Assembly: GCA_041487635.1 (NCBI GenBank)
Contig: JBGPNR010000001.1
Coordinates: 1 to 36,456, forward strand
DNA length: 36,456 nucleotides
Direction: 5' to 3'
Source: Candidatus Udaeobacter sp.
GTDB taxonomy: Bacteria > Verrucomicrobiota > Verrucomicrobiia > Chthoniobacterales > UBA10450
Every line of letters begins with the position of its first letter. Position 1 is the first letter of the stretch. A program made the translations under genes and the position numbers. Shown piece by piece: positions 5,740-23,813 of the stretch. Under the pieces are notes generated by a model that saw only the letters and a list, made by a program, of their open reading frames with translations, did not search any database and was not told the origin of the DNA.

Positions 5740-5754
5740 GCGCTTTCGCTCGTT

Positions 5755-5929
5755 TGTCATTCCGAGCGCAGTCGAGGAATCTCTTTTCATCAATGACGAA
5801 TGACAAATGTCGAATGACGAAGTCCCAAACGCGCGCGCATCTGATCTTTTCATCATTCTCCGCTCGCGCTTCGTTCGTCATTCGGAATTCGTCATTTGAG
5901 GTTACGTCTCGACTTCGCTCGACATGACA
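5755..5929. repeat. 175-bp composite inverted-repeat element filling the ctp-tsaD spacer
   Basis: The termini are tgtcattccgagcgcagtcgagga (5755-) and the reverse complement of tgtcatgtcgagcgaagtcgagac (5906-5929). Inside are inverted heptamer arrays: AATGACG x4 at 5792-5819 and CGTCATT-type x4 at 5869-5896. Confidence 0.55.
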
Positions 5930-7021
5930 GTATTAGCCCTCGAAACATCGTGCGATGAGACTGCCGTGGCGATCTTGCGCGGGCGCGACGATCGCTCCGG
6001 TCCGGAGTTGCTTGCCAGCGAAGTGGCATCGCAGATCGCCGAACACGAGAAATACTGTGGGATCGTGCCTGAGATTGCGTCGCGCAACCATCTGGTATAC
6101 GCGCCGCGACTGCTCAATCGCACCGCAAAGGCGTCCAAGATCGATCTGTCAGACGTTGATGCATTTGCGGCGACCAGCGGACCCGGGCTGGCGAGTTCGC
6201 TCATGGTAGGCGCGTCGATCGCCAAGGGATTGGCGATCGGCTTTGGCAAGCCTTACATCGCAATCAACCATCTCGAAGGCCATTTGCTATCGCCATTTTT
6301 CAGTGGCGCAAATGGCGAGGCGGGAATCAGACCGAATGTTTCGCTTATTGTGAGCGGTGGACACACCATGCTGGTTCGAGTGCATGCGCTGTGTGATTAT
6401 CAGGTGATCGGCCGCACGGTCGACGACGCCGCTGGCGAGGCGCTCGATAAAGTCGCCAAGATGCTTGGGCTGGCTTATCCCGGCGGCCCGGAAATTGAAA
6501 AGCTCGCCCGCGACGGTGATCCAAACCGTTTTGGTCTGCCGCGCAGCATGCTCGGCTCGGAGAATTTTAGCTTCAGCGGGTTAAAAACCGCGGTGCGATA
6601 TTTGCTGCCGAAAATCGATGTCATTCCGAGCGAAGCGAAGCGTAGTCGAGGAATCCCGGCGAACGGCCTTTCTAGTAACGCCACGGGATCCAGCCACTTC
6701 GCACGTGATGACGTCCTTCCGGATCTATGCGCGTCGTTCCAACAGGCAATTATCGACGTGCTGGTGACAAAGACGATTGCGGCAGCGCACAAATACGACG
6801 TCGATCTCGTGACAGTTAGCGGCGGCGTGAGTTGCAACCAGGAATTGAGAAGGCAGTTGCACGAGGCATGCAGTCGCAACGGATTTGAATTCAAAAACGC
6901 CGAGCCGTCGTTGTGTACCGACAACGCGGCCATGATTGCCTTTGCTGCATTATTGCGATTGCAGGCGGGATTTGAATCGCAAGTGACCGAAGAGATCGAC
7001 CCGAATCTCGCGCTCGCGTAA
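5924..7021 (+). CDS. tsaD: tRNA N6-adenosine threonylcarbamoyltransferase TsaD
   Basis: 365-aa ORF with the motifs LALETSCDETAVA, NHLEGHLL, SGGHT and SGGVSCN. It carries a 31-codon repeat-derived insert at 6620-6712. Confidence 0.9.
   Translation: MTVLALETSCDETAVAILRGRDDRSGPELLASEVASQIAEHEKYCGIVPEIASRNHLVYAPRLLNRTAKASKIDLSDVDAFAATSGPGLASSLMVGASIAKGLAIGFGKPYIAINHLEGHLLSPFFSGANGEAGIRPNVSLIVSGGHTMLVRVHALCDYQVIGRTVDDAAGEALDKVAKMLGLAYPGGPEIEKLARDGDPNRFGLPRSMLGSENFSFSGLKTAVRYLLPKIDVIPSEAKRSRGIPANGLSSNATGSSHFARDDVLPDLCASFQQAIIDVLVTKTIAAAHKYDVDLVTVSGGVSCNQELRRQLHEACSRNGFEFKNAEPSLCTDNAAMIAFAALLRLQAGFESQVTEEIDPNLALA
6620..6712. repeat. 93-bp in-frame copy of the GTCAT..CGAAG inverted-repeat element inside the tsaD CDS
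   Basis: The left end is gtcattccgagcgaagcg. The reverse complement of the right end is gtcatcacgtgcgaagtg (14/18 identical). It belongs to the same family as 5755, 5906-5929 and 11876-11959. Length is 93 nt = 31 codons (VIPSEAKRSRGIP...HFARDD). Confidence 0.6.
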
Positions 7022-7037
7022 TCTTTTCGCCATGCTG

Positions 7038-7180
7038 ATTCTGGGGAGCGAAGGCTGCCAGCCTGCAGTCGTCGGCAGCTTGCCGACGACATTTTTCGCG
7101 AAGCGACCTTTGAATTGGAACACAAGCTTTTCGGCAGGTTGCCGAAAAACGACAGGCTGGCAGCCTGTGCTCCCCAGAAT
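7038..7180. repeat. 143-bp inverted-repeat element between convergent tsaD and the polyprenyl synthase gene
   Basis: About 49-nt arms: attctggggagcgaaggctgccagcctg... (7038-) against ...caggctggcagcctgtgctccccagaat (-7180). Each arm contains its own 9-10 bp hairpin. Confidence 0.65.
7068..7096 (+). terminator. intrinsic terminator candidate for tsaD
   Basis: Perfect 10-bp stem gtcgtcggca / tgccgacgac (7068-7090) followed by aTTTTT (7091-7096). A mirror hairpin ttttcggca / tgccgaaaa at 7128-7148 could serve the minus-strand gene. Confidence 0.6.
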
Positions 7181-8064
7181 CAATACTCGCGCTCGAGAAG
7201 ATAATTCGCCAGCGCATGCAGCGGTTCGGCATCGCTGCCACTGAACACCGACAGAGCATTGTGCGCCTGACGGGTGAGCTGTCTGGCTTCGGCGCGGGAT
7301 TCTTCCAAGCCGATCACTGCGGGGTAAGTCGCTTTTTTTGCGGCCAGATCTTTGCCAGCGCTCTTGCCCAATACCTCCGAAGTCTGCGTTACATCGAGAA
7401 TGTCATCGATGATTTGGAACGCGAGACCCAGTCGCTGCCCGAACCGTGTGATGGCAGAAAGTTTTCGGGCGTCTGCGTTGCCGCTCATCGCACCGAGCCG
7501 CACCGAGCTTTTCAAAATGGCTCCGGTCTTATTCTCGTGAATAAATTTCAGCTGGTCGCGTTTGACGTCCTTGCCTTCGGCTTCGAGATCAGCAACCTGA
7601 CAGGCGATAAGTTTTTGGCTTCCAGCTGCAACTGAAATCTCGCGCAACAAGGCTGAAGTGTTGTAGCGGCGCGCCGGCTTCGTTCTGGAGACAATTTCGA
7701 ACGCGATCGTCAACAACGCGTCTCCAGCCAGGATCGCAATGCCGTCGCCGAAGACTTTGTGGCAGGTGGGCCGACCGCGCCGCAAATCATCGTTGTCCAT
7801 ACTGGGAAGATCATCGTGCACGAGCGAGTAGGTGTGAATGCATTCGAGCGCGCAGGCAAGAGGGAGCGCATCGTCGATGTTCCCGCGACAAGCTTCGGTT
7901 GCCGCAAGGCAAAGAATAGGTCGCAATCGTTTCCCACCAGCGAAAAGACTATAACGCATCGCCTTGTGAAGTGTTGCGGGTTTCGTATTCGCCCCGGGCA
8001 AATAGCGATCCAGCGCCCGGTCGATCTTTCTTTGGCGGCTGCGAAGATATGCTTTCAGATCCAT
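7180..8064 (-). CDS. polyprenyl (farnesyl/geranylgeranyl) diphosphate synthase
   Basis: 294-aa ORF with the first Asp-rich motif HDDLPSMDNDDLRRGRPT and the second Asp-rich motif FQIIDDILD. Confidence 0.88.
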   Translation of the reverse strand: MDLKAYLRSRQRKIDRALDRYLPGANTKPATLHKAMRYSLFAGGKRLRPILCLAATEACRGNIDDALPLACALECIHTYSLVHDDLPSMDNDDLRRGRPTCHKVFGDGIAILAGDALLTIAFEIVSRTKPARRYNTSALLREISVAAGSQKLIACQVADLEAEGKDVKRDQLKFIHENKTGAILKSSVRLGAMSGNADARKLSAITRFGQRLGLAFQIIDDILDVTQTSEVLGKSAGKDLAAKKATYPAVIGLEESRAEARQLTRQAHNALSVFSGSDAEPLHALANYLLEREY

Positions 8065-10541: not shown

Positions 10542-10614
<73 letters not shown>

Positions 10615-10685: not shown

Positions 10686-11870
10686 ATGGCTAAGGAAGCT
10701 TTTAAACGCGACAAGCCGCACGTGAACGTCGGCACGATCGGCCACGTGGACCATGGCAAAACCACCCTGACAGCTGCAATCACGATGGCGTTAGCGAAAA
10801 AGGGCATGGCCGAAGTGCGGGCATATGAATCGATCGATAATGCCCCCGAGGAAAAAGAGCGGGGAATCACCATCAACACAGCGCACGTGGAGTATTCGAG
10901 CGACAAACGCCACTACGCACACGTTGATTGCCCCGGGCACGCGGACTACGTCAAGAACATGATCACTGGCGCGGCACAAATGGATGGTGCCATTCTGGTA
11001 GTCTCCGCCGCGGACGGTCCCATGCCGCAGACGCGTGAACACATCCTGCTGGCCAGGCAGGTAGGGGTTCCATCGATTGTCGTTTTCCTGAACAAAGTCG
11101 ACATGGTCGATGATCCCGAGCTCCTTGATCTCGTGGAGATGGAAGTGCGCGATCTACTGACGCAGTATGAATTTCCAGGCGACAAAATCCCGATTGTCAA
11201 AGGCAGCGCGCTCAAGGCGCTGAATGGCGACGCGGAGGCGGAAAAGCAAGTCCTCGCGCTGGTGGAGGCGATTGACGATTACATCCCTGTCCCCGAGCGC
11301 CCCGTCGATCAACCATTCCTGATGCCGATCGAAGACGTGTTCAACATTGAAGGCCGCGGCACTGTCGCCACGGGTCGTGTCGAGCGCGGCGTTCTCAAGA
11401 AGATGGGAGAGGTCGAGCTGGTGGGCATTCGACCGACAGTTAAGACCGTGGCGACCGATATCGAGATGTTCCGCAAACTTCTCGATGAAGCGCGCGCGGG
11501 CGATAACGTCGGCGTTCTGTTGCGCGGCTTGAAGAAGGAGGAGGTAGAACGCGGGCAGGTCATCGCGAAACCGGGCTCCATTACGCCGCACAAGAAGTTT
11601 AAGGCGGAAGTTTACGTGCTGAGCAAAGAGGAAGGCGGACGTCACACTCCGTTCTTCAGCAATTACCGGCCACAATTTTATTTCCGCACGACTGACGTTA
11701 CTGGGACGGTTAAATTGCCCGAAGGCGTCGAAATGGTAATGCCGGGCGATAACATCTCCATCGAGGTGGAGTTGATCACGCCCATCGCGATGGAAAAGAC
11801 GATCCGGTTCGCCATTCGCGAAGGGGGCAAGACCGTCGGCGCGGGTCGCGTGGGCGATATTTTGGATTAA
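10686..11870 (+). CDS. tuf: elongation factor Tu
   Basis: 394-aa ORF with AGGAGA upstream and the GTPase motifs [21 protein letters not shown] and SAL. Confidence 0.98.
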
Positions 11871-11875
11871 ATTGT

Positions 11876-11959
11876 TGTCATGTCGAGCGAAGTCGAGACA
11901 TCTCTGATTTGGTGATTCGAGAGATTCTTCGGCTCCGCTGCGCTTCGCTCAGAATGACA
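11876..11959. repeat. 84-bp inverted-repeat element (GTCAT..CGAGCGAAG family) between tuf and tRNA-Trp
   Basis: The left end tgtcatgtcgagcgaagtcgagac (11876-11899) is identical to the reverse complement of 5906-5929. The reverse complement of the right end is tgtcattctgagcgaagcgcagcggagccgaagaatctc. Confidence 0.65.
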
Positions 11960-11968
11960 ATTAAAAAT

Positions 11969-12041
11969 ACGCCAGTAACTCAATTGGTAGAGTAGCGGTC
12001 TCCAAAACCGCCTGTTGGGGGTTCGAGTCCCTCCTGGCGTG
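11969..12041 (+). tRNA. tRNA-Trp (anticodon CCA)
   Basis: Hand-folded cloverleaf. Acceptor stem acgccag/ctggcgt, anticodon arm gcggt-ctCCAaa-accgc, T arm ggggg-ttcgagt-ccctc. It sits in the canonical position between tuf and secE. Confidence 0.9.
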
Positions 12042-12071
12042 TGGCTACCGCCGTGTTAAAGGGTTGAATTG

Positions 12072-12131
12072 TTGAAGCGTTAAACCGGACGAAATGAATT
12101 TGCTGCGTGATTGGCCGCTTTAACCCTTCAA
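12072..12131 (+). other. long hairpin in the tRNA-Trp/secE spacer
   Basis: ttgaagcgttaaaccgg (12072-12088) pairs with ccgctttaacccttcaa (12115-12131) at 15 of 17 positions, with a 26-nt loop. Function unknown (processing site, terminator or repeat). Confidence 0.35.
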
Positions 12132-12152
12132 CGAGTCACGATTGCATTTTAA

Positions 12153-12371
12153 ATGATCACCAGGATTAAGAACTTCTTCGGCGAAGTGAAAGTGGAGCTG
12201 CAGAAATGTTCGTGGCCGTGGGACCCGAAGGAGAAAGGATTCCGCCGGTACAAGGAACTGAGTGATTCGACGGTTGTAGTCGTTATCGCGATGCTTTTGC
12301 TTGGTGGTTACGTCGCGCTGTTTGATTTCGTTCTGGTGAACGTTGTGCACTTTTTCACTCGAATACACTGA
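12153..12371 (+). CDS. secE: preprotein translocase subunit SecE
   Basis: 72-aa ORF with the typical start (IKNFFGEVKVELQKCSWP) and a single C-terminal TM helix, in the canonical position upstream of nusG. Confidence 0.9.
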   Translation: MITRIKNFFGEVKVELQKCSWPWDPKEKGFRRYKELSDSTVVVVIAMLLLGGYVALFDFVLVNVVHFFTRIH

Positions 12372-13036: not shown

Positions 13037-13462
13037 ATGGCAAAAGAAAAAGTAGCAGAAATAAAACTCCAAATTCCGGCGGGACAAGCTAACCCTGCGC
13101 CGCCGGTAGGTACCGCTCTCGGCCCGCGCGGTGTGAACATCATGGCGTTCTGCAAAGAATTTAACGCTGCCACCCAGAAACAAGCCGGCGACATTCTCCC
13201 GGTCGTGATCACCGTCTTCAAAGACAAATCATTCACGTTCATCACGAAGAGCCCTCCCGCTGCCGTCCTTTTGAAAAAGGCGGCTAACATCGCTGCCGGG
13301 TCCAAAGAGCCGAACAAAACGAAGGTCGGCAAAGTCACGCGCAAACAAGTCATGGACATCGTGAACACCAAGCGCCAAGACCTGAACGCGCGCGACGACG
13401 AAGCCGCCTTCCGCATCATCGCCGGCACCGCCCGCCAAATGGGCCTCGAAATCGCCGATTAA
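13037..13462 (+). CDS. rplK: 50S ribosomal protein L11
   Basis: 141-aa ORF containing [30 protein letters not shown]. It is full length, with a normal C-terminus ([10 protein letters not shown]). Confidence 0.98.
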
Positions 13463-13473
13463 TAGTTTTCAAG

Positions 13474-14312
13474 ATGGTTAGCGCCATCTGTAAGCAGTGC
13501 GGTAATCCAATAGTTCGTCGTGGCACGAGACGACCAATTTTTTGCAGCATTTTCTGTAAGCCGCATGGCAGCGATTACAAAAACCTATCTCTCGACCGGA
13601 GCTACGGCGGTTGTACGTCGATGAAGGATTAGGGACGTATGCGATCGCACGGCTAGTGAATCGCGATCCAAAGCGAGTTTACGACTGGCTAACGGGATAC
13701 CAAATTCCCATTCGACGGCGAACGTGGGATACAACGACTCGAACAAAACCGTACCACGATCGCAATTGGCTCGAGCGCGAATATCTCAAAAGGAAGCGTT
13801 CGGCCTCTGAAATCGCGCGCCAGTTCGGGGTTACAGAGAATACTATTTTGTTTTTCCTAGATGTTCTGAAGATTCCCCGGCGGACAATGAGTGAAACGCG
13901 AGCTGTTAAACATTGGGGATCAAAGGGCGAAGATAACCCAATGTTTGGCCGGACAGGTCAAACGAACCCGCATTGGAAAGGCGGAGTAACGCCTGAGAGG
14001 CAGTCGTTCTATGTTTCGCAGGAATGGAAGCGCGCCTGTGTCGCGGTCTGGCACCGAGACAGAGCGACGTGCAAACGCTGCGGTAAAAAGGCTAAAGATG
14101 GTGCAGCTCTTCACATTCACCATATAGTTTCATTTGCTGTTCGGGCAGAGCGCGACAATCCCACAAATTTAGTTCTGCTCTGCAGTTCATGTCATCACTT
14201 CGTGCACAGCTTAGCAAATGCGAACGGGGAGTTCCTCGCTTCAGAAACGCGAGCGGGATGCTACATGAAGAGGTCGGCGGGCTGGCCAACAAACATAAGC
14301 GAGACAGAATAA
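13474..14312 (+). pseudogene. free-standing HNH homing-type endonuclease, disrupted by a 1-nt frameshift near 13560
   Basis: The frame starting at 13474 gives the zinc-ribbon start MVSAICKQCGN..FCSIFCK. The frame open from 13560 continues AAWQRLQKPISRPELRRLYVDEGL.. into the 13611-14312 ORF. That ORF has two HTH-like modules and the HNH/zinc motif CKRCG..HIHHIV..NPTNLVLLCSSCHHFVH. Restoring one base after AAG (13558-13560) joins the two frames. Confidence 0.75.
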
Positions 14313-14372
14313 GCAATGACTGGTGATCAGCCGTTCGATTTAGACTGATATCAAGCTGAGCGGTTGGAGCAG

Positions 14373-15458
14373 ATGACCACCGCAGCAGAGCAGCGCGCTA
14401 CATCCCACGAGCATAAATCGTTTAATGAGTACCGCCGCCAGCGATATGAGGAGTTGCAAACGTTCGCTGCAAAGCGGCGGAAGATTTATCTCGATACTAA
14501 GTTTTGGATTTGGTTAAGAGAACCACAGGCTTCGCCATATCCGTCTGCAATGGCGACCTTACTGGATAAACTGCGAGATGGTGCTTCCGAAGGAAGCATT
14601 TGTTGCCCCGTTAGTTATCCAATGTTCGTTGAAGCTACGAAAATTTTTCCGTTAAGTCGTCGGTATCAGCACGTTCGGGCGATGGATGAACTTTGCGAGG
14701 GAGTGGCACTACGCAATCCGTTCGATATTTTCGAACTAGAAGTGCTGGAGTTCTTCATCCGCAATTCACCCGCGCTTCGAAATCTGCCGCTACGACCGGA
14801 CAGCGTTTGGTGCCCCGTCGGGCACATGATAGGTGAAAAATATCCATTCCATCCGATGCTTGATGGTCGCGCCCAGGATGCTGCTCACAAATTTATCCTC
14901 GACGCAATGTGGGAGATGACGATGGCTGACTTAGTCATGCAAGATGTCCCGCACCCGCGGATGGATACGGCGCAGAAGGTCAACGCCGAGCGAAGTCTCA
15001 ATCCACGAGGCACGAAGACTTTCGAGCAACTGTTGAAAGAGGAATTGCACGGAGCGCTAGAGGCAATGTTTCCACACATTCGAAATGCCCTAAAAGATCT
15101 TGCGTCGGTATTCGGTATCAGCGCTGAGCCTGCCGATGTGACTCCCGAAGCCTTTCGTCCGGTAATCAACCTAATTCGTGAGGCCGTAACTCAAAATTTG
15201 GACCAAGCCGCGATCCCGTCATTGCGAATTCGCTCTGCATTGCATGCTGCAATACGGTTGGATGATAACCGGCCGTTCCGCGAAAATGATTTTCCCGATC
15301 TCGACCACTCTTCGGTTGCTGTTGCTTATTGCGATGTGTTCCTGACGGAACGTTCGTTTGGTGATTTGCTGGAACAATCATTCGTTAAAAACGTTTCGCG
15401 TTCACAGTGCTTCGTCGCAACCAGCCCGGAGGGCGCGTTAGCTGCACTGGACGCATAG
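14373..15458 (+). CDS. orphan hypothetical protein (possible PIN-like/HEPN-like nuclease motifs)
   Basis: ATG at 14373 preceded by GGAG (14366-14369). The ORF-track TTG start is at 14364. I cannot assign a family by eye. See the findings for the motif-level observations. Confidence 0.6.
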   Translation: MTTAAEQRATSHEHKSFNEYRRQRYEELQTFAAKRRKIYLDTKFWIWLREPQASPYPSAMATLLDKLRDGASEGSICCPVSYPMFVEATKIFPLSRRYQHVRAMDELCEGVALRNPFDIFELEVLEFFIRNSPALRNLPLRPDSVWCPVGHMIGEKYPFHPMLDGRAQDAAHKFILDAMWEMTMADLVMQDVPHPRMDTAQKVNAERSLNPRGTKTFEQLLKEELHGALEAMFPHIRNALKDLASVFGISAEPADVTPEAFRPVINLIREAVTQNLDQAAIPSLRIRSALHAAIRLDDNRPFRENDFPDLDHSSVAVAYCDVFLTERSFGDLLEQSFVKNVSRSQCFVATSPEGALAALDA

Positions 15459-15465
15459 CAAGCAT

Positions 15466-17133
15466 TTACTCGCGCTCGTCGTCGCTGTTTAAACGTTTAA
15501 AGTATTCCCACTGCTGCAGTGAAATCGGGACGTTGCCGTTTTTCCAGACGAAATCGTGGAAGGCGCGGAGGTTGAACTTGTCGCCATGCTGCATGCGCGC
15601 GTCGGCGAGAAATTTCATGATCTGCAACTTCCCGATTTGGTAAGTAATGGCCTGACCAGGACCAGTGGAAAACGCGATCGCTTCTTGCCGCGCGGTCTGT
15701 TCGTCCATCGGGACTTTCTCCTGTAGATAGTTGGCGGCTTGCTCGAGCGTGAATTCGCCGAGCGCGAGTTTCACGTCCACTTCCACGCGCAGCGCGCGGA
15801 GCCGCATGAAATTGTAAATGATCTCGCGCGTGTGCGGGCTGTCATCGAACAAACCGGCCTGCAGCATCATTTCTTCGGCGTAAAAGCCAATCCCTTCGTT
15901 CGCGCCGGAATCGTAGTAATGCCGCCGGATCGGGTCCTCGTGTTTCCACGAAAGACAAAGCTGAAAGTAATGACCGGGAATTCCTTCGTGAACAGTGATC
16001 GGCCGCGGATCCATCGCTGTCGCGCGCCAGAAGTAGCCAAGATTTTCTGACGGCTCAGGCACGTAACGGATGCAATTCTCGTTCAGCCGCGACGGCGACG
16101 TGAAGTCATCGTTCTCAGTAAAGCCGAGAGCGCGCAAATATTCCGGAGTCGGTCGAAGCGTGTAATGCTGGATCCAATCCGGCACAGTTAGAATCCCGCG
16201 CTCTTGGAGAAATTTACGGATCGACAATTCCTTTTCAGCTGCATCGCGAATCCAGTTATCGATGTTGTCGGCAATTTTCAGCGGCGGCACATCTTTGTTC
16301 CGATTTTTCTCGTACGCTTCGAACGCAACCGCGCGATTCCATTCCTGCCGTCCCATTGCCAGCAGTTCCTCCGGCGTGAACGGCATCAGTGCGACATTTC
16401 GCAAAAACCAGACGTACGCGTCGCGACCGAGCGCTGTTTGCTGCGGAAGCTTCGGCAGGTTTTCTTTGAGCTGCTGCTGAAATTTCTCCAGCGCACCGGC
16501 TGCTTGTTCGCAAGCGCTGTTTAGATCTTCCGGGCTCAGAGTCGTGGATTTTATGAGTGCGCTCGACATTTTGCGGAGACGCTCGCGAATGCCGTGGAGG
16601 TTCTGGATCGCGACGCTTGCAAACGGCGCCGGCGGATGCTCGAGATTCTCCGAGCCTTGCTGCAGGATCGACGGAATATTCTCGACTCGCGTGAGAATCT
16701 CGCGACTCCGTGCTTCCCCGTAAGGCGCGGGAATAGTAAGCGCTTCCGCCAGCGCGGTGAGCGTCTGCTCAACGTAAAAATTCGGATCGCGTTTCCAGCG
16801 CGGATTTACGTCGAGTTCCCAATGAACCCGTGACAGCGCAGAGCCGACCAGTTTGTAATCGACTTGCTGCGAAACTGGCCAGCTGCTCGGATCAATGTTC
16901 TTCCACCGCGTTTCGAATTGTTTCAGATCATTTCGCCGTTGATCAATGCTCGCTCGCGACCAATTGCGTATTCCCCCTGGCCGTTCCGATCGATTGACAT
17001 CGTCACCTGTGAACGGCGCGTATTTCGTGCGCCATGTCCAGAAGTCGTCGGCCAGCTTCTCGAGTGATTCAGCGGCGGCAATGTTCGCGACACAAATCGC
17101 AATCAACGCGAGCAAGGCAACGCGCGCTTTCAT
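15466..17133 (-). CDS. secreted DUF885-family protein, second paralog
   Basis: Contains the signature HEGIPGHYFQ. ATG at 17133 gives the signal peptide MKARVALLALIAICVANIAAA and overlaps the upstream stop as ATGA. The ORF-track start at 17265 lies inside the upstream gene. Confidence 0.8.
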   Translation of the reverse strand: MKARVALLALIAICVANIAAAESLEKLADDFWTWRTKYAPFTGDDVNRSERPGGIRNWSRASIDQRRNDLKQFETRWKNIDPSSWPVSQQVDYKLVGSALSRVHWELDVNPRWKRDPNFYVEQTLTALAEALTIPAPYGEARSREILTRVENIPSILQQGSENLEHPPAPFASVAIQNLHGIRERLRKMSSALIKSTTLSPEDLNSACEQAAGALEKFQQQLKENLPKLPQQTALGRDAYVWFLRNVALMPFTPEELLAMGRQEWNRAVAFEAYEKNRNKDVPPLKIADNIDNWIRDAAEKELSIRKFLQERGILTVPDWIQHYTLRPTPEYLRALGFTENDDFTSPSRLNENCIRYVPEPSENLGYFWRATAMDPRPITVHEGIPGHYFQLCLSWKHEDPIRRHYYDSGANEGIGFYAEEMMLQAGLFDDSPHTREIIYNFMRLRALRVEVDVKLALGEFTLEQAANYLQEKVPMDEQTARQEAIAFSTGPGQAITYQIGKLQIMKFLADARMQHGDKFNLRAFHDFVWKNGNVPISLQQWEYFKRLNSDDERE

Positions 17134-18152
17134 TCTTCGCTGTCCGATGTGCGCCGAAGCGTAATGACGGCGGGATTGTTGCCCCGACGGTACATCGAGA
17201 ATCCGTAGCAAATCGCGGCTGTATTTTCGCGAGCGTACCGAATGTGGTTCAACATCTCGTCCCAACGCTCGATGTACCAGCAGTTCGCCGTCTTCTTGCT
17301 CCCGGGAATCGGTACGTAACGATTTTCGGTGAACGTGAGAAACGCGCTCTCATCGGGCAACGGAAACGGCGTTGCCCAATTTGGCGACAGCCGCACGAAG
17401 CGCTTTCGCACGAGATCGAGCGCAAACACTGTTGTTCCATCGCTGCTGTTGAGATGCAGATCAAAGAACGCGAGACGCAGTGCGCCATCGAACAGAAAGC
17501 AGCGTTCCGGGTTCCGGTTCTCATGCAAAATTCCGAACGCTCCTTCAAATCCCGCGAGATCCACAAACGGCGTCTCGGTTCCGGATTTCGGGTCGCGCAA
17601 TAAATAATGTGCGCCGTGTCCAGGCATATCGACCTGATCGGCCTCATCGTTTGGATTTTCACGCAACACGAGCTCAAACGCACCGCCGGGAGATTTGTAG
17701 GTTGGCGTCGGCGTCGGCGATTCGTTAGGGGACTCGCTGGATTCGGGCGAACCACTGGGCGGAGGTGAATTTGCCGCTTCAGGCTCGGCGTTTGTGAAAT
17801 ACGGCGACGTCTTTGCTTCGACGTACCACGACGGCGCGTCCTCAAGCTTTTTCAGTCCTTCTCCATGCGGCTTAATCGTCCAGTACTCGACGATTTTGTG
17901 CGGTTTTTCCCGCGTGAATACAATCGTTTCGCCGCTCGAATCGAAAATCGGTGCGACGTCCTGCCCAGAGTTGTCATTCGTCAACTGGCGCAACAGTTTT
18001 CCATCCTCTCGATACAGATACAGATGGGAGTGACTGATTCCCTCCGCTTGCAGATAACGAATGGCGATTACGATTTCCGAATCGCCCCGCGCGATCGTCA
18101 CAAGGAGCGAAAATACTCCGGCGACAGCCAATATTCGAAGGGTCGAGCGCAT
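17130..18152 (-). CDS. secreted hypothetical protein with PD40/TolB-like segment and Pro/Ser-rich linker
   Basis: 340-aa ORF with the signal peptide MRSTLRILAVAGVFSLLVTIARG, a beta-propeller-blade-like segment (LTNDNSGQDVAPIFDSSGETIVFT) and the linker SPPPSGSPESSESPNESPTPTPT. It is start/stop coupled to both neighbours. Confidence 0.65.
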   Translation of the reverse strand: MRSTLRILAVAGVFSLLVTIARGDSEIVIAIRYLQAEGISHSHLYLYREDGKLLRQLTNDNSGQDVAPIFDSSGETIVFTREKPHKIVEYWTIKPHGEGLKKLEDAPSWYVEAKTSPYFTNAEPEAANSPPPSGSPESSESPNESPTPTPTYKSPGGAFELVLRENPNDEADQVDMPGHGAHYLLRDPKSGTETPFVDLAGFEGAFGILHENRNPERCFLFDGALRLAFFDLHLNSSDGTTVFALDLVRKRFVRLSPNWATPFPLPDESAFLTFTENRYVPIPGSKKTANCWYIERWDEMLNHIRYARENTAAICYGFSMYRRGNNPAVITLRRTSDSEE

Positions 18153-19966
18153 CAGCGAAAAGGGAGTTGAATTGTGCTGGGGTGCGCAGCGTCATGATAA
18201 ATCTGCACGTGACACGTGCGCGCGTCCTTCGCCGTTTCATCGGCCACAACTCCGCCGGAGCAATAATTTTTTTGCCAAGAGATTGAATTGACGGCGGTGA
18301 CAATCAGGCGCAGGCGGCTGCCCTTCATTAGTCGGCGCGCGACGAACAATCCGGGGTTGAAATCGCATTTCAAAATCTCGCCCGGCTTAACGAGCTTGGC
18401 TTCGCGCAGCGACTCGCGGTAGCGCAGCCGGCCCAGGGTGCTCCACAACGCGATGGTTGTTCCGTCCGGCTGGACTTCGTAAAGATCGCACTCAAGATCG
18501 ACATCTGGGGTGTCAATGGAGAGCCACAGGGTGACTGCGGGACAACCAATCAATGGCGTCTCGTTTGGCAAGGGCTCGGTATGATACACTAAGCCATCGC
18601 TGCCGATGCTCAGCGCAAACGTCTGATCGATCGCGGCGGTTTTCTCTTTTGGGTCTACTCCTTCAACAAATTCGCCGCGGTGTGTGTCCAGTGGGTCGTA
18701 TGTGAATTTATCAGTACCGTCGGTCGGCCGCATTTCAGTCAGCGCGCCCGAGCGAAATACTCCGTTCGCATCACTATTCTTCGACGCGAGATAAAATGTC
18801 TTCGGATTGGCGATCAATGCTGCGAAATCGTCGGCGTATTTCCATTCGCCGTTGGCGCCGCTATTGCCGGGCGCTAGCAAATAATATGCGACCTGGCTTC
18901 TGAGGAAGGGCGGCTTCGGGCCGGCCTTCATTGTCCAGTCATACCATTGGCGATGCAGATCGTTAAGATCGACAATCGCACCGGGGCCGAATTTCACCCC
19001 AGCGACATCAGCCGTCGGCGTGCGTGTGCCGGCATGGTCCCACGGGCCAATGACAAGAAAATGTTTCGCCCGGGCTTCGGTTGAGGCGTTCGCCATGTGA
19101 TCACGATAGAACGTGAGCGCGCCCAACTCGTCGCCGTCATATTGGCCGGTAATCGTCAGGATCGGCAGTGTGATTTTTTGAAACTGGTCGCGCGTCGGAA
19201 GCATCGCATCGTAGTACGCATCGACCGTGGGATGTTTGAGGATGCGCTGAAAATTGACGGAGGGATTTCCGACAAAGGAATCGAGCGATTTAAATGGAAG
19301 GTGTTTCTTGTAAGCATCGAGGAATTTTGTACGCCAGAATTTTTGATCAGCGAAAAGGTTTTCCTGTCCGGTGCGGCCACTAGTGAGCGTAAACCACTGC
19401 ATGTCGTAGGTTTCGCCGACATTGTTGTAGGAAGGATAATCCAGCCCCGGGTGAGCAGCTGCCGCCGGAACGATCGTCGCAAGATGCGGCGGGAATTCTT
19501 TCGCCGTCGCCCATTGATCGAACCCCGCGTAAGACCCACCCCACATTGCGATTTTCCCGTCGCAAAACGGCTGTTTTGCTAACCACTCAACGACGTCATG
19601 TCCATCGCGCGGTTCGTTTGCAAATGGTTCAAACTCGCCGCCGGAATTTCCGCGACCTGGCACATCCACGAGCGCGAACGCGTATCCATGCGACGCGAAG
19701 TAGGCGCCGCGGGCGTGGTACGTATCGGAAATGTAAGGAGTGAGCGTGAAGATCACCGGCGTCTTCGGCTGCGATCCGTCCAGCGTTTTCGGTAAATACA
19801 ACGTCGCGTTGAGTTCGACGTTGTCGCGCATTGGAATCTTTACGGCCCATCGCAGATTGTAATCAGCAGGCGGTTGTGCCGGAGATGGCGCTGGAGTTGG
19901 AGATTGTGCAGTGACGTTTGTGGTGAAGGCTGCGCAGAGCAGGCCTGCTAAGATTGACAATTTCAT
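18152..19966 (-). CDS. CocE/NonD family hydrolase (peptidase S15, Xaa-Pro dipeptidyl-peptidase-like), secreted
   Basis: ATG at 19966 gives the signal peptide MKLSILAGLLCAAFTTNVTA (the ORF-track TTG start is at 19975). Motifs include VDVPGRGNSGGEF, the nucleophile elbow WGGSYAG and a C-terminal beta-sandwich region. Confidence 0.85.
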   Translation of the reverse strand: MKLSILAGLLCAAFTTNVTAQSPTPAPSPAQPPADYNLRWAVKIPMRDNVELNATLYLPKTLDGSQPKTPVIFTLTPYISDTYHARGAYFASHGYAFALVDVPGRGNSGGEFEPFANEPRDGHDVVEWLAKQPFCDGKIAMWGGSYAGFDQWATAKEFPPHLATIVPAAAAHPGLDYPSYNNVGETYDMQWFTLTSGRTGQENLFADQKFWRTKFLDAYKKHLPFKSLDSFVGNPSVNFQRILKHPTVDAYYDAMLPTRDQFQKITLPILTITGQYDGDELGALTFYRDHMANASTEARAKHFLVIGPWDHAGTRTPTADVAGVKFGPGAIVDLNDLHRQWYDWTMKAGPKPPFLRSQVAYYLLAPGNSGANGEWKYADDFAALIANPKTFYLASKNSDANGVFRSGALTEMRPTDGTDKFTYDPLDTHRGEFVEGVDPKEKTAAIDQTFALSIGSDGLVYHTEPLPNETPLIGCPAVTLWLSIDTPDVDLECDLYEVQPDGTTIALWSTLGRLRYRESLREAKLVKPGEILKCDFNPGLFVARRLMKGSRLRLIVTAVNSISWQKNYCSGGVVADETAKDARTCHVQIYHDAAHPSTIQLPFR

Positions 19967-20174
19967 CTTGATCAATTCAACCGAAGAAGGCCTGGCGAGA
20001 CAAGAAAGTAGAATTCGACTAACGACTGGCGATGCATCCGCCGTTTACAGCAAATCGAGTTTGCGAGACGATAAGCGCGTGGCTCGCGGTCCTTCCAAGC
20101 ACAAGCAAACTCAGAGCCGCAGCAATTCCGGGCGAGCGACGGCTTTGAACCGAGCGTCGACGCTGAACCGGCAG

Positions 20175-22217
20175 ATGAATGCTGCTCGGACAATTCGTCT
20201 GTCGCAAGCGGAGTTGCTTTGCGCCAGCACCGTATTTCTTGTGGCGCTACTTCTTTATGGCTGGACGCTTGCTTCCACGGTTACTCTCGTCGACAGCGGC
20301 GAATTGATAGTGGCTGCTCAAGGGCTGGGAGTTGCGCATCCGCCGGGCTTCCCTCTATGGGTCATGCTCGCGCATCTCGCATCGCTGGTGCCTTTGGGAA
20401 ACGTTGCGCTTCGCATCAATTTTTCGTCTGCTCTTTTCGCTGCGCTGGCGTCCGCGATGCTCACTCTCATTGTCGCGGACTTGATGATTACAGGTTCATA
20501 TCTCTCCACGTCGAAGCAGAAACGCGCGCAGCGAAGAAGAGAGGATGACGACTCGAGCTTTGGCCGGCTTTTGATCTTCGCGCCTGCGCTTGGCGCGGGC
20601 TTGCTCCTGGCGTTTTCTCGAACGCTTTGGTCGTACGCGACAATCACTGAAGTCTACACTCTCAACGCGCTGCTAATTCTCACGGTTTTTTTTCTGCTGC
20701 TTCGCTGGCGGCGGCGCATCGTCGCGGACCAAGGGAATGCTGGCGCGGCGCTTGCGGCACACGACAGTTGGCTTTATGTCGCCGCTCTCGTGTTTGGGTT
20801 GTCGCTGGGCGTGCATCACGTCACGGTGGGACTGACACTTCCGGCTCTCGCCGTGATCGTTTACAGGACGCAGGGACTGAGATTTTTCACAGGCCGACGA
20901 CTGATATATGCGGCGCTGATTTCGATTGCCGGCCTGGTCGCTGTTTACGCCTATTTGCCGTTTGCAGCGTCCCGGTCACCTGTCATTAACTGGGGCAATC
21001 CGCGTTCACTGCAAGAGATTTGGTGGCATGTAACCGGTCGCCAATACCGAGTGTTTCTCTCCTTCAGTCCATCGACGATGGGAACGCAGTTCCTTGAATT
21101 TTGCCGAATGCTCCTGCGCGAATTCGGCCCTGCCTGGATGCCTTTGCCGCTATTATTGGCTTTTACCGGTTTTGCCAGTGCTTACAAGAGAGACCGCACA
21201 ACCTTTTGGTTTCTCTTATTCATCATCATCGCCAACTTGGCGTACGATCTCAGCTACCAAATTGCGGAAGACAAGGACGCGTACTATTTGCCGACATTCA
21301 TTGCGATGGCGATCGGTGCAGGGTTCGGCATTCGTTGGCTAATCCAAATCACCGTCTCGAAGTCCACGCGATCAAGTGGGTACTGGGCCGCAGTAATTGC
21401 CATTTTACTCACATCAGCAACAGCGTTCGCGGCGAATTGGCCATTCAACAATCGCAGACATTACTTTATTGCCCACGATTATGTTGAAAATCTACTCAGC
21501 ACGATCGAGCCCAATGGCCTCTTGCTCACACAAGACTGGCAGGTCGTGTCGCCCATGTTCTATGCCCAGGAAGTGGAGCGACGCCGGCCCGACGTCAAAG
21601 TTGTCGACATTAATCTGCTGCGTCGTTCGTGGTATTTCGATTATCTAAGACACGCCTATCCTAGCTTGATCGAGCGGTCACGCGAGAAGATTGACACATA
21701 TCTTGAGGACCTCAAAGAATGGGAGCGCGATCCTGGGGCTTTTGCCAGAAACGACTTTCTTACTCAAAAGATCAGCACGGCTTTTTTCGAGATGATCCGA
21801 TCGATTGTAATGAACGAGAACAGGGTCGCACCAGTTTATATTGCACAAGACTTGCTCTTCGCGGACACAACGAACGGTCAAGTGACCAAGTGGATCATGC
21901 AAAATTATCAACTTGTTCCGCAAGGTCTGGTTTTCAACCTCGCGGCTGACCAGAGCTTTCACGATTCGCCAGAGCCGCGCCTCCAGACTCGCGGCCTGGC
22001 TGACGGGACAGTGCGGTTTGACAAGGATGACGTAGTGAACCTCAAGATTTTACCGGCGTACACCAGCATGTTAGTCAATCGTGGACGCTACCTCGCCTTA
22101 TTCAATCAGTACGAGCGCGCCATGGTTGCGTTCAAAGAGGCACTCGCACTCAATCCCAGCCTCACCGCGGCGCGAGAAGGCCTTGCGAAAAGCGCGGCGA
22201 AACTGGGCAAGCCTTAG
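20175..22217 (+). CDS. DUF2723 (TMEM260-like GT-C fold) membrane protein with C-terminal TPR region
   Basis: ATG at 20175. The N-terminal loop motifs VDSGELIVAAQGLGVAHPPGFPLW are characteristic of DUF2723. Many TM helices follow, then a TPR-like tail (NRGRYLALFNQYERAMVAFKEALALNP). The ORF-track 5' extension to 19911 overlaps the divergent gene. Confidence 0.8.
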   Translation: MNAARTIRLSQAELLCASTVFLVALLLYGWTLASTVTLVDSGELIVAAQGLGVAHPPGFPLWVMLAHLASLVPLGNVALRINFSSALFAALASAMLTLIVADLMITGSYLSTSKQKRAQRRREDDDSSFGRLLIFAPALGAGLLLAFSRTLWSYATITEVYTLNALLILTVFFLLLRWRRRIVADQGNAGAALAAHDSWLYVAALVFGLSLGVHHVTVGLTLPALAVIVYRTQGLRFFTGRRLIYAALISIAGLVAVYAYLPFAASRSPVINWGNPRSLQEIWWHVTGRQYRVFLSFSPSTMGTQFLEFCRMLLREFGPAWMPLPLLLAFTGFASAYKRDRTTFWFLLFIIIANLAYDLSYQIAEDKDAYYLPTFIAMAIGAGFGIRWLIQITVSKSTRSSGYWAAVIAILLTSATAFAANWPFNNRRHYFIAHDYVENLLSTIEPNGLLLTQDWQVVSPMFYAQEVERRRPDVKVVDINLLRRSWYFDYLRHAYPSLIERSREKIDTYLEDLKEWERDPGAFARNDFLTQKISTAFFEMIRSIVMNENRVAPVYIAQDLLFADTTNGQVTKWIMQNYQLVPQGLVFNLAADQSFHDSPEPRLQTRGLADGTVRFDKDDVVNLKILPAYTSMLVNRGRYLALFNQYERAMVAFKEALALNPSLTAAREGLAKSAAKLGKP

Positions 22218-22297
22218 TACTGTCTTGAGAATGGGGCGTGCGGCGTTTGCCACATTCCTTTCTTGCCAGCGTACTACATTGCTTCTAAACGAGCGGG

Positions 22298-23665
22298 ATG
22301 AGAATCACGTTTCGTATTCTTCTACTTTTCCTGTTTTTCGACGTGTCGGTGCACGCGGCCGATCAGCCAATCGCGCTTAAAGCTGCGCGAATGTTCGACG
22401 GCAAATCGAACGCCCTCGTGCAAAATGCCGTCGTTATCGTACAGGGCGACAAAATCGTCGATGCGGGAAGCAATTTGCCGATCCCCAGAGGAGCGCAGGT
22501 CATCGACCTTGGCGACGCGACGCTTTCGCCTGGTTTCATGGATGCGCATACGCATCTGACGCTTGATTTCTCCGGAGATTACAATCTGCGCCGGCTAAAA
22601 GAGGTCGACCTCAATGTTTCCGAGCAGGCGATCATTGCCACGGCGCATGCGCGCGCCACTGTCGAAGCGGGGTTCACTACCGTGCGCGATCTTGGAAGCC
22701 GCTTCGTTGGTAGCCGCGAGTTCGTCGATGTCGCGCTACGCAATTCGATCAACAAAGGCGTGATTGTCGGGCCGCGTATGCTGGTCGCGACGAAAGGCAT
22801 CGGCGCCACAGGCGGACATTTCGATCCCACCAGCGGGTTTCGCGATTTTCTTTTTGGACGCGAGCCGGACTACACAGACGGGATTGCGGACGGCGCTGAC
22901 GAAATTCGAAAGGCGGTGCGGTTTGAGGTGAGGAATGGCGCGGATGTGATCAAGGCCGCAGTCTCCGGCGGCGTACTTTCACTCGCCGACGAAGTCGACA
23001 CTCCGCAATTGACGCCGGCTGAAATGGCTGCGCTCGTCGACGAATCGCATCGCTTACGCAAAAAAGTGGCTGTGCATTGTCACGGCGATCAGGCCGCGCA
23101 CGAGGCGATTGAAGCGGGAGTTGATTCGATTGAACACGGTTCTTTTATGAAACCGGAAACGCTGACGATGATGAAAAGAAAGGGAACATTTCTTACGCCC
23201 ACGCTCATGGCGACCGAATGGATCATGAGCAAGATCGACAATTACCCGCCGGCATTACAGGCCAAAGCCAAAGCCGCAGCGGCAGCGCGCTCGGATATGT
23301 TCCGCAATGCAGTGAAGATTGGCGTGAAGATTTCATTTGGAACGGACGCGGCAGTTTTTCCGCACGGGCAAAATGCAAAAGAATTCAAACTAATGGTCGA
23401 TCTCGGAATGACACCAGTCGATGCATTGAGATCCGCGACCGCAAACGACGCCGAGCTTTTGGGAGTCGGTCAAAAGGTCGGCACGCTGGAAAAAGGCAAA
23501 CTGGCCGATGTCATTGCCATGCCGGGCGACCCGACTTCCGACATTACTGCAACCGAGCGCGTTTTGTTCGTGATGAAAGAGGGCAAAATTATCCGCCGGG
23601 GCGCGCCGACAGTGCAAGGAATCTCCGAATCGACAACGCCAGACATCGCAGCGCCGGTCGATTGA
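22298..23665 (+). CDS. secreted amidohydrolase-family metallohydrolase
   Basis: 455-aa ORF with a signal peptide, the HxH metal motif PGFMDAHTHL, plus VAVHCHG, SIEHG and FGTDA motifs of the amidohydrolase superfamily. Confidence 0.85.
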   Translation: MRITFRILLLFLFFDVSVHAADQPIALKAARMFDGKSNALVQNAVVIVQGDKIVDAGSNLPIPRGAQVIDLGDATLSPGFMDAHTHLTLDFSGDYNLRRLKEVDLNVSEQAIIATAHARATVEAGFTTVRDLGSRFVGSREFVDVALRNSINKGVIVGPRMLVATKGIGATGGHFDPTSGFRDFLFGREPDYTDGIADGADEIRKAVRFEVRNGADVIKAAVSGGVLSLADEVDTPQLTPAEMAALVDESHRLRKKVAVHCHGDQAAHEAIEAGVDSIEHGSFMKPETLTMMKRKGTFLTPTLMATEWIMSKIDNYPPALQAKAKAAAAARSDMFRNAVKIGVKISFGTDAAVFPHGQNAKEFKLMVDLGMTPVDALRSATANDAELLGVGQKVGTLEKGKLADVIAMPGDPTSDITATERVLFVMKEGKIIRRGAPTVQGISESTTPDIAAPVD

Positions 23666-23695
23666 TGCGCCCGTGGCATTTATTGGCATAAGGCT

Positions 23696-23723
23696 TTGAC
23701 AAGGCGAAGATAGCCGCTACCTT
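23696..23723 (+). promoter_or_regulatory. candidate sigma-70-type promoter for rplA-rplJ-rplL(-rpoBC)
   Basis: TTGACA at 23696-23701, a 16-nt spacer, then TACCTT at 23718-23723, about 90 nt upstream of the rplA ATG. Pattern match only. Confidence 0.3.
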
Positions 23724-23813
23724 CCGTGCTCCGTTCATGGATTGAGGTGGAGCGGTTTTAAGCAGGAGCCTCGTTGCTGTGCCAAGTGACTGGGCATTTG
23801 AACTGCATAAGAA

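Follow-up and report, generated by a model that had tools for sequence, protein, structure and literature searches.

We analysed a 36,456-nt stretch of the genome of a Candidatus Udaeobacter sp. (GenBank assembly GCA_041487635.1, contig JBGPNR010000001.1; hereafter referred to as the window), focusing on a gene for a 361-residue protein that lies on the forward strand just downstream of a broken HNH endonuclease gene (Table 1). We propose that this protein is a stand-alone, metal-dependent, VapC-like nuclease whose PIN domain is split by a helical insert, and that it has a mobile defence role. Considering the residue conservation, a predicted structure and the analogy with the anti-phage protein DS-3, we put the probability of this reading at about one half. 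The fold itself, PIN-like and split by the insert, we consider highly probable from sequence and model. The protein belongs to an unnamed, large family of stand-alone bacterial proteins whose members are annotated only as "hypothetical protein".

A preliminary description of this gene, made from the sequence alone, had presented it as an orphan with nuclease-like motifs. Its open reading frame (ORF) coordinates and quoted motifs (KIYLDTKFWIWL, residues 37–48; ICCPVSYPMFVEATK, residues 76–90; and DLDHSSVAVAYCDVFLTERSF, residues 309–329) agreed with our analysis, as did the 60-nt gap to the HNH gene, the GGAG preceding the start codon and the 7-nt spacing to the convergent gene.

Invariant acidic residues and a predicted PIN-like fold

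We examined conservation in 128 diverse family members, which are approximately 21–46% identical to the window protein. Y39, D41, W45, P79, E87, E224, D309 and H312 were invariant (128/128), position 326 was acidic in every member (E in 105 and D in 23), and T325 was conserved in 122 out of 128. With D41, E87 and D309 invariant and residue 326 always E or D, the acidic motifs are conserved far beyond chance. The preliminary description had suggested D-to-A mutants in the LDT and CDVF motifs; the Asp of CDVF (D321) is not the best choice, as it is D in only 99 out of 128 members, the invariant acids being D41, E87, D309 and E/D326. The same description had read RIRSALH (residues 285–291) as a loose Rx4-6H motif of HEPN nucleases. 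We rejected a HEPN nuclease because the R of this motif is not conserved: position 285 is R in only 18 out of 128 members and mostly H, with H291 conserved in 114, and the pattern in the window copy is a chance occurrence.

Modelling with AlphaFold2 and the family alignment yielded a structure with a predicted local distance difference test score (pLDDT) of 89.9 and a predicted template modelling score (pTM) of 0.88. In this model, DSSP assigned β1 to residues 36–40, β2 to 76–79, β3 to 111–113, a short strand to 146–148, β4 to 322–324 and β5 to 347–349, together with a helical block at approximately 165–296 and a helix at 306–319 that opens at D306/D309. The predicted order of elements, β1-α-α-β2-α-α-β3-α, insert, α-β4-α-β5-α, is that of a VapC-type PIN domain, with approximately 150 extra residues placed immediately before the helix bearing the third catalytic Asp. 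The N-terminal half comprises β1 ending at D41, two helices, β2 (C78-P79), a helix with E87, another helix, β3 and a helix with E123, and closes with an extra strand that carries W146. The C-terminal half opens with the helix N305-D306-x-x-D309-x-x-H312, followed by β4, T325-E326, a helix, β5 and a last helix. The canonical positions of the acids and Thr of PIN domains are given in the PIN superfamily classification (PMC5499597); in the predicted structure, the four acids and the Thr of the window family occupy these positions, in a VapC-like manner.

The insert is all-helical in the model. E224 is invariant in it, and D177, W180, G227, H291, A292 and R295 are near-invariant. Neither the window sequence nor the consensus of the insert had a Pfam match, and no relative of the insert was detectable. 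Its strongly conserved residues indicate a functional domain rather than a linker.

Weak matches in profile and structure searches pointed to the PIN clan. When the 128 members were scanned singly against Pfam, the PIN clan topped the list of matches, with PIN in two members, PIN_12 in one (E = 5.4e-4) and PIN_3 in one. The hidden Markov model (HMM) consensus of the N-terminal half matched PIN_12 (E = 0.0084) and PIN (E = 0.11), both matches starting at IYLDT. The family consensus from which the insert had been removed matched PF01850 (PIN) at E = 6.2e-4 over profile positions 1–108 of 120, spanning the splice. One reversed and eight shuffled consensus sequences, run as controls, gave no PIN-clan match, with a best E value of 0.05. 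Using the model of residues 30–160, Foldseek ranked Mycobacterium tuberculosis VapC11 first (probability 0.54, template modelling (TM) score 0.43/0.41) and VapC15 third; the top 50 matches also held the SMG6 PIN domain, the T5 flap endonuclease (FEN), VapC21 and two HARP RNase P structures. An hhalign comparison with a VapC alignment paired D41 with VapC D7 and E87 with VapC E42. That alignment was made up of close relatives of Shigella VapC and was narrow (Neff 2), and the positive control, DS-3, reached only P = 0.002–0.005 against it.

Several results weigh against a PIN assignment. The native protein had no Pfam match at E ≤ 1, and no PIN-clan profile reached its gathering score; the PF01850 match scored 20.8 bits, below the gathering score of 23.6, and was obtained only with the consensus and after the insert had been cut out by hand; the spliced sequence of the window protein itself gave no match. 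The VapC11 and VapC15 fragment matches had E values of 0.65–1.9 and TM scores of approximately 0.4, and the best of the fragment search (E = 0.65) was not significant. The full-length model returned nothing below E = 1 from PDB and BFVD, with only scattered Rossmann-like and FEN-like noise. The Foldseek search that the preliminary description had called for thus found no match with the full model and ranked VapC11 first, without significance, with the N-terminal half. The hhalign comparison with VapC was not significant either (P = 0.1–0.2). None of the structure or profile matches is significant alone.

The conserved core might instead adopt another α/β fold with an acidic site, such as that of a metal-dependent hydrolase or a nucleotide-binding sensor. 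The non-significance of all Foldseek, HMM and hhalign matches to PIN speaks for such a fold, as does the conservation of Y39, W45, P79, E123, E224, R295 and H312, which lie outside the canonical PIN signature. We nevertheless consider it improbable, because the four PIN acids and the Thr stand at the expected secondary-structure positions, and PIN-clan families or structures top the weak matches in three independent tests with clean controls. The preliminary suggestion, a PIN-like nuclease interrupted by a long helical segment, was upheld by the invariant acids, the order of elements in the model and the PIN match of the insert-free consensus.

Comparison with DS-3 and other PIN-like proteins

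DS-3 (working name PIN8, WP_022645725.1, 340 residues, Escherichia coli) is a single-protein anti-phage system described in the DefensePredictor study (PMC13092281). It has no antitoxin, its defence is lost in catalytic mutants, and according to the screening table it protects strongly against T4, RB69 and phage Candy (PMC13092281). The PIN evidence for DS-3 is also weak by sequence, with published HHpred probabilities of 0.91 and 0.41 (PMC13092281). We took its sequence from Table S8 of PMC13092281 and built a DS-3 family of 26 clusters. Like DS-3, the window protein is one protein of approximately 340–380 residues that has no antitoxin or partner gene, and in both a helical insert of approximately 150–200 residues divides the predicted PIN domain into N- and C-terminal halves, at the same point in the topology. 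The two also share the motif R/K-x-x-x-N-D-x-x-D-F that opens the C-terminal half (hhalign P = 9.4e-5, 13 columns).

By contrast, the inserts are unrelated (hhalign P = 0.15), and DS-3 lacks the W45, C78-P79, E224, R295 and H312 signature of the window family. The DS-3 family is small and enterobacterial (26 clusters), whereas the window family is very large and mainly environmental. Less favourable to our reading, hhalign gave P = 0.0037 over only 16 columns, so that full-length homology is not demonstrable, and hmmsearch was not significant in either direction. Membership of the DS-3 family is accordingly not demonstrable, hhalign matching only a short motif. The phage protection and catalytic-mutant results are those of DS-3; the window family is known from sequences and predicted models. 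On present evidence, the window protein would work like DS-3, which is its closest described analogue.

VapC toxins have the same four acids and Thr in the same predicted secondary-structure context, they provide the top Foldseek matches for the N-terminal half, and the insert-free consensus aligns with nearly the whole of PF01850. They differ from the window protein in that the latter is approximately 2.7 times larger, has the insert of approximately 150 residues and scores below the Pfam threshold for PF01850. VapBC modules differ further, as no VapB-like gene adjoins the family gene among ORFs of at least 70 residues in 77 loci, and the upstream gene in Udaeobacter is rplK. A search for VapC homologues among the ORFs of the fetched family loci found none. 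We rejected a VapBC module because no antitoxin gene was found among ORFs of at least 70 residues and the protein has the wrong size.

DUF4935 comprises uncharacterised bacterial proteins of approximately 350–380 residues that are usually monocistronic and combine a PIN-like core with helical additions (PMC5499597), and a DUF4935/PIN_12 (PF16289) protein is a component of DS-5 (PMC13092281). PIN_12 supplied both the best single-member Pfam match, in 1 out of 128 members, and the best match of the N-terminal consensus. In DUF4935, however, the PIN domain is contiguous and N-terminal and is followed by an α/β region (PMC5499597), whereas the core of the window protein is split and its addition is all helical. 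We rejected membership of DUF4935/PIN_12, given a consensus score of 16.9 bits against a threshold of 32 and the different architecture.

FENs likewise combine a PIN-like core with an inserted helical element (the arch), and two viral FEN-like proteins and T5 FEN were among the weak Foldseek matches. The FEN arch is much shorter and is inserted elsewhere in the fold, and the window protein has no H3TH domain. The catalytic Glu of the window protein is predicted on the helix after β2, which is the VapC-like arrangement (PMC5499597).

A large family in mobile and defence-like contexts

Direct searches with the window protein found no match in Pfam, NCBIfam, PADLOC or PDB sequences, and the family profile had no match among PDB sequences; standard searches thus place the protein no better than inspection by eye had done. 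The label "orphan" was nevertheless wrong. A word-indexed search found 45 clusters at 90% identity, with proteins of approximately 360–390 residues aligned end to end, and a profile search over 1.84 billion representatives found 2,771 clusters at 50% identity (E ≤ 1e-3), 646 of them at E ≤ 1e-30, homologous over their full length. No domain fusions were found in longer family members. A scan of one genome per species placed homologues in Verrucomicrobiota, Planctomycetota, Alpha-, Beta- and Gammaproteobacteria, Nitrospirota, Acidobacteriota, Bacteroidota, Chloroflexota, Spirochaetota and others, as well as in Leptospira and Sulfurovum, and the phylum-level distribution of the family was patchy. 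A literature search for this exact family returned nothing, the nearest paper being the description of DS-3 (PMC13092281).

We surveyed possible partners by all-against-all BLAST of ORFs of at least 70 residues from 80 species-level loci, 77 of which contained a full-length target. No recurrent partner or antitoxin gene was found across the 77 loci within this size range, RNA antitoxins and smaller ORFs being outside its scope. The sole recurrent neighbour was an Eco57I/TaqI_C/HSDR_N type IIG restriction-modification enzyme, encoded directly upstream in 7 loci. The upstream gene was co-oriented in 52 out of 72 loci, and its stop codon often overlapped the start codon of the family gene; thus, the family gene tends to be the last in its cluster.

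At one locus, a type III restriction-modification operon (AAA_15/21, Mod, Res) ends in the PIN gene, followed by genes for DUF4238 (PADLOC DUF4238-Pers, E = 1.8e-10), DUF5131, TIR_2 and an integrase. A second type III restriction-modification locus also carries DUF5131 and DUF4238. In a conjugation context, TraG/VirD4, ParA and TrwC occurred with AAA_15/21, pP_pnuc_1, E2/ThiF (E1/E2 genes) and IS1595; other contexts contained the Tn7 genes TniB and TniQ, DUF4365, NERD with HipA, or an AAA_11/12 helicase. Among 119 immediate neighbours, the top Pfam families were phage integrase (3), type IV secretion system coupling protein (3) and N6_N4 methylase (2), with single cases of RE_Eco29kI, ApeA_NTD1, HipA_C, DUF559 and Hypoth_Ymh. 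The family is thus a mobile, accessory, single-gene module found in mobile and defence-like contexts. The survey of homologue neighbourhoods proposed in the preliminary description revealed no HNH association, but restriction-modification, DUF4238, integrase, conjugation and Tn7 genes often adjoined the family gene.

We made some further observations on these loci and members. DUF4238 and DUF5131/GP88 genes adjoin the PIN homologue in two type III islands (L092, 7306–9977; L095, 8074–10508), and the three may form a recurring trio. DUF4238 is the validated single-gene system Rst_DUF4238, named DUF4238-Pers in PADLOC. In L027, from a Burkholderiales metagenome-assembled genome (MAG), positions 4891–7941 encode a 1016-residue fusion of a caspase (Peptidase_C14) and a DEAD/ResIII helicase, the gene for which shares 4 nt with the start of the PIN homologue; the two may form a defence pair at the level of the operon. 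When the 128 members were compared with PADLOC, scattered single matches appeared, the best being to LmuA (E = 5.8e-5); this match, to model PDLC03858 (a Lamassu component), concerned one member out of 128.

Proposed function

In the mechanism that we infer, which comprises nuclease activity, self-inhibition by the insert and a defence role, D41, E87, D309 and E326, with T325, would form the metal-binding active site. The insert, with invariant E224, R295 and other conserved residues, would lie next to this site and gate or direct the nuclease. As there is no antitoxin gene, we propose the insert as the gate, in the form of a domain for regulation or substrate recognition. The protein would remain inactive until triggered by phage infection or an incoming mobile element, and the released nuclease would then cut RNA, blocking the invader or the cell. 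The protein would be an endonuclease, with RNA as its most likely substrate by analogy with VapC and DS-3-type PIN proteins. The preliminary suspicion of a defence or selfish function fits the homologue neighbourhoods and the analogue DS-3 (PMC13092281); such a function is plausible but unproven. A further-reaching claim, that the window protein founds a very large and so far unrecognised family of immune nucleases that act as single proteins and in which a built-in helical sensor unrelated to that of DS-3 checks the VapC-like PIN site, is tentative and, in our judgement, doubtful.

Some features of the family do not favour a mobile defence role. Sequenced plasmids are nearly devoid of it (1 out of 72,556 records, the single copy being annotated as "hypothetical protein"), and no member was present in the collection of phage records searched. 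PADLOC holds no model for the family, and neither the window protein nor the consensus had a significant match in PADLOC-DB v2. Many neighbours are housekeeping genes, including ClpB, HrpB, Hsp70, gyrB and lpx genes, and the neighbourhood figures are raw counts.

The protein might alternatively be the toxin of an addiction module that stabilises the island, plasmid or integrative element carrying it, controlled by an unrecognised small protein or RNA antitoxin or by inhibition in cis. The gene lies repeatedly beside TraG/ParA/TrwC, TniB/TniQ, integrases and transposases, its product has a VapC-like catalytic set, and PIN toxins are known to cluster with restriction-modification systems (PMC5499597). 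However, no small flanking ORF (among those of at least 70 residues) was conserved in the 77 loci, the family is very rare on sequenced plasmids, and in several lineages frameshifts have destroyed the gene with no partner visible. We therefore consider an addiction toxin rather unlikely.

A housekeeping RNA-processing nuclease, co-transcribed with secE-nusG-rplK and acting in rRNA or tRNA maturation, is very unlikely. In at least five related contigs, the gene does begin 7–12 nt downstream of rplK and in the same orientation, and it is under purifying selection (see below). The PIN nucleases Nob1, Utp24 and HARP process rRNA or tRNA, and such structures were among the Foldseek matches. Outside the Udaeobacter lineage, however, no homologue was seen beside ribosomal genes. 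The distribution is patchy, related strains have no such gene at the site, the gene is frameshifted in L002 and six soil runs, and the site after rplK is a variable hotspot. We favour the split PIN nuclease with a mobile defence role over both alternatives.

The HNH gene and the site after rplK

The HNH gene upstream encodes an HNH domain (PF01844, E = 1e-10) and helix-turn-helix (HTH) domains according to Pfam. As the preliminary description had noted, it is broken: loss of 1 nt (G) after 13559 splits a Zn-ribbon ORF (13474–13632) from an HTH and HNH ORF (13611–14312). An extra G in six soil metagenome runs restores a single HNH ORF of 279 residues, whereas neither the window nor runs X1, X2, X6 and X12 have the HNH domain in an intact ORF. 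Up to this site, the gene order is tRNA, tuf, tRNA, secE, nusG, rplK, HNH gene and PIN gene; there follow DUF885, a hypothetical gene and peptidase S15, all on the reverse strand, and then TMEM260-like/TPR, amidohydrolase, rplA, rplJ, rplL, rpoB and rpoC.

Table 1. Features of the split PIN-like gene and its surroundings (window coordinates)
Feature	Positions	Strand	Remarks
rplK (ribosomal protein L11)	13037-13462	+	Upstream anchor
Free-standing HNH endonuclease gene, frameshifted	13474-14312	+	Zn ribbon, HTH repeats, HNH
Remnant of ancestral 19-codon N-terminal extension	14316-14372	+	Coding in the aligned L001 and L090 sequences
Split PIN-like protein gene	14373-15458	+	361 residues from ATG; stop codon included
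N-terminal half of PIN-like core (predicted)	14472-14822	+	Approximately residues 34-150
All-helical insert (predicted)	14823-15272	+	Approximately residues 151-300; DSSP of model
C-terminal half of PIN-like core (predicted)	15273-15455	+	Residues 301-361; DSSP and conservation
DUF885 gene, convergent	15466-17265	-	Downstream anchor; 599 residues; Pfam DUF885, E = 1.6e-59

In the related contigs L001, L002/L003 and L090/L091 (69–89% protein identity), the PIN gene starts 7–12 nt after the rplK stop codon and there is no HNH gene. DNA alignment with these relatives showed that the HNH ORF fills a spacer that is otherwise 6–12 nt long, which marks the HNH gene as an insertion of approximately 850 bp (13463–14315). 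No HNH homologue was found near other family members among the fetched loci (phmmer, E ≤ 1). The HNH gene is thus an independent, recent insertion that is unrelated to the PIN gene and is not its partner.

The preliminary description had proposed that the HNH and PIN genes together form a two-nuclease cargo for defence, addiction or homing. The genes are adjacent, on the same strand and 60 nt apart. Against such a cargo, relatives carry no HNH gene at the same site, no other fetched family locus has an HNH homologue nearby, and the HNH gene is frameshifted in the window, whereas the six runs with an intact HNH gene have a frameshifted PIN gene. We consider the idea extremely improbable, and as a conserved pairing it is already refuted.

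The position directly after rplK looks like an insertion and variability hotspot. Contigs of related strains join the rplK stop (13458–13463) directly to 15503–15530, at the 3' end of the DUF885 gene, skipping 2040–2068 nt; such rplK-DUF885 joints were seen in runs X2, X3 and X21, and these strains have neither the HNH nor the PIN gene. In other strains, the sequence downstream of the rplK stop varies, with at least six different versions, and some of these contain a hairpin resembling a terminator (CAGGCAGCTTGCCTG). In L001, which holds the closest orthologue, a PLDc_2/DpnI_C gene (restriction-endonuclease-like; 11484–12287, reverse strand) and two small ORFs, all absent from the window, lie between the PIN and DUF885 genes; this adds to the evidence that nuclease and defence cargo accumulates here.

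The genes rplK and rplA are normally adjacent. In the window, approximately 10 kb (13463–23813) separate them, holding the HNH and PIN genes, the genes on the reverse strand for DUF885, a 340-residue hypothetical protein and S15/PepX, and those for a TMEM260-like glycosyltransferase with TPR and an amidohydrolase. This island is common to L002 and L090 with gains and losses, L002 having neither the S15 nor the TMEM260-like gene. The tRNA genes at 10542–10614 and 11969–12041 flank tuf, the usual arrangement upstream of secE-nusG.

Start site, haplotypes and gene decay

The PIN ORF begins with the ATG at 14373, which is preceded by GGAG at 14366–14369 and lies 60 nt after the HNH stop codon (14310–14312). 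A TTG at 14364, the earliest possible start of this ORF, would give 364 residues. The end of the convergent DUF885 gene (15466) is 7 nt past the PIN stop codon. Upstream of the ATG, the native start of the ancestral N-terminal extension (ATG, 14316) is followed by an in-frame TGA at 14346–14348, which closes the extension in the window copy; the in-frame ATG with its preceding GGAG sits 24 nt past this TGA. The alignments place the extension outside the core that the family conserves, and the relative P0003 (362 residues) has been called from the same internal Met as the 361-residue form. Rfam, promoter and terminator scans of the region found nothing relevant.

We compared the window gene with its 87%-identical orthologue in L001 and obtained a ratio of nonsynonymous to synonymous substitution rates (dN/dS) of 0.146 (dS 0.51), which indicates longer-term purifying selection on the PIN gene. 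A 239-nt metatranscriptome contig from soil run X21 matched 15089–15327 of the PIN ORF perfectly, at a depth of 2.8; in the same run rplK had a depth of approximately 83 and the HNH gene nothing. As DNA carry-over is possible, this contig is weak evidence that the PIN gene is transcribed.

The 2.1-kb HNH-PIN block was nearly identical in at least 12 public soil and sediment metagenomes. Haplotype A, that of the window, occurred in the sediment runs X1, X2, X6 and X12; it has the frameshifted HNH gene, T at 14346 (TGA) and a PIN gene intact from ATG 14373. Haplotype B, from the soil runs X3, X4, X5, X8, X9 and X10, has an intact HNH gene, C at 14346 with the extension open, and a PIN gene frameshifted by the loss of one A in the A4 run at 14640 (codon 90). 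A third haplotype, in the sediment run X7, has C at 14346, an open extension and an intact PIN gene, corresponding to a 380-residue form; the HNH frameshift site is not covered in this run. Position 14346 was thus C (CGA), leaving the extension open, in seven runs. The main haplotypes are approximately 99.8% identical, with five changes over 2.1 kb, and either the HNH or the PIN gene is broken in every haplotype in which both are readable. In addition, the PIN gene of L002/L010 (Candidatus Udaeobacter MAG DASXNN010000093.1, 9636–10783) contains two frameshifts and is called as fragments of approximately 100 and 260 residues; an NCBI contig and a JGI contig show the same state.

The HNH and PIN genes are therefore two independent, dispensable accessory elements, and an obligate pair is ruled out. 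The PIN gene after rplK has had different fates among strains of the Udaeobacter-like lineage: some have inherited it, some have lost it, and in others it is frameshifted or truncated. That HNH and PIN are inactivated in reciprocal fashion may be due to chance or to a conflict between them. As a speculative extension, the contrast between a dead HNH gene with a live PIN gene in sediment and the reverse in soil could record a conflict between the PIN protein and an invading HNH element.

A further point that counts against a functional nuclease in the window is that the TGA cuts off the ancestral start, so that this copy could be a very young pseudogene. As a decaying pseudogene, it would have lost its native start to the TGA at 14346–14348 and not yet accumulated damage. 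The in-frame TGA in the ancestral extension speaks for this, and the PIN gene has been lost in sister lineages; with only five changes per 2.1 kb between haplotypes, the intact ORF says little about current selection. Yet there is an in-frame ATG, with GGAG in front of it, 24 nt past the TGA, the 19 lost residues lie outside the conserved core, P0003 is called from the same internal Met, and part of the ORF is matched perfectly by a metatranscriptome contig. We assign a low probability to decay.

Implications

At the level of the window, the HNH gene and the "orphan" are separate accessory elements stacked after rplK, both decaying in different strains. For the family, the split-PIN design will be no surprise to specialists since DS-3, and the family is a good candidate for annotation, specifically as a defence candidate: it is common in soil and sediment phyla that are poorly covered by screens centred on E. 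coli. If our reading is right, a family of thousands of clusters would gain a fold and a testable function, and the DS-3 design, in which a PIN nuclease has no antitoxin and is regulated by an internal insert, would have a second, independent representative. The ways in which such effectors are silenced and triggered would then become open to comparative study. If the more tentative claim of a family of immune nucleases with their own sensor were true, "split PIN plus sensor insert" would be a design that recurs among abortive-infection effectors lacking an antitoxin.

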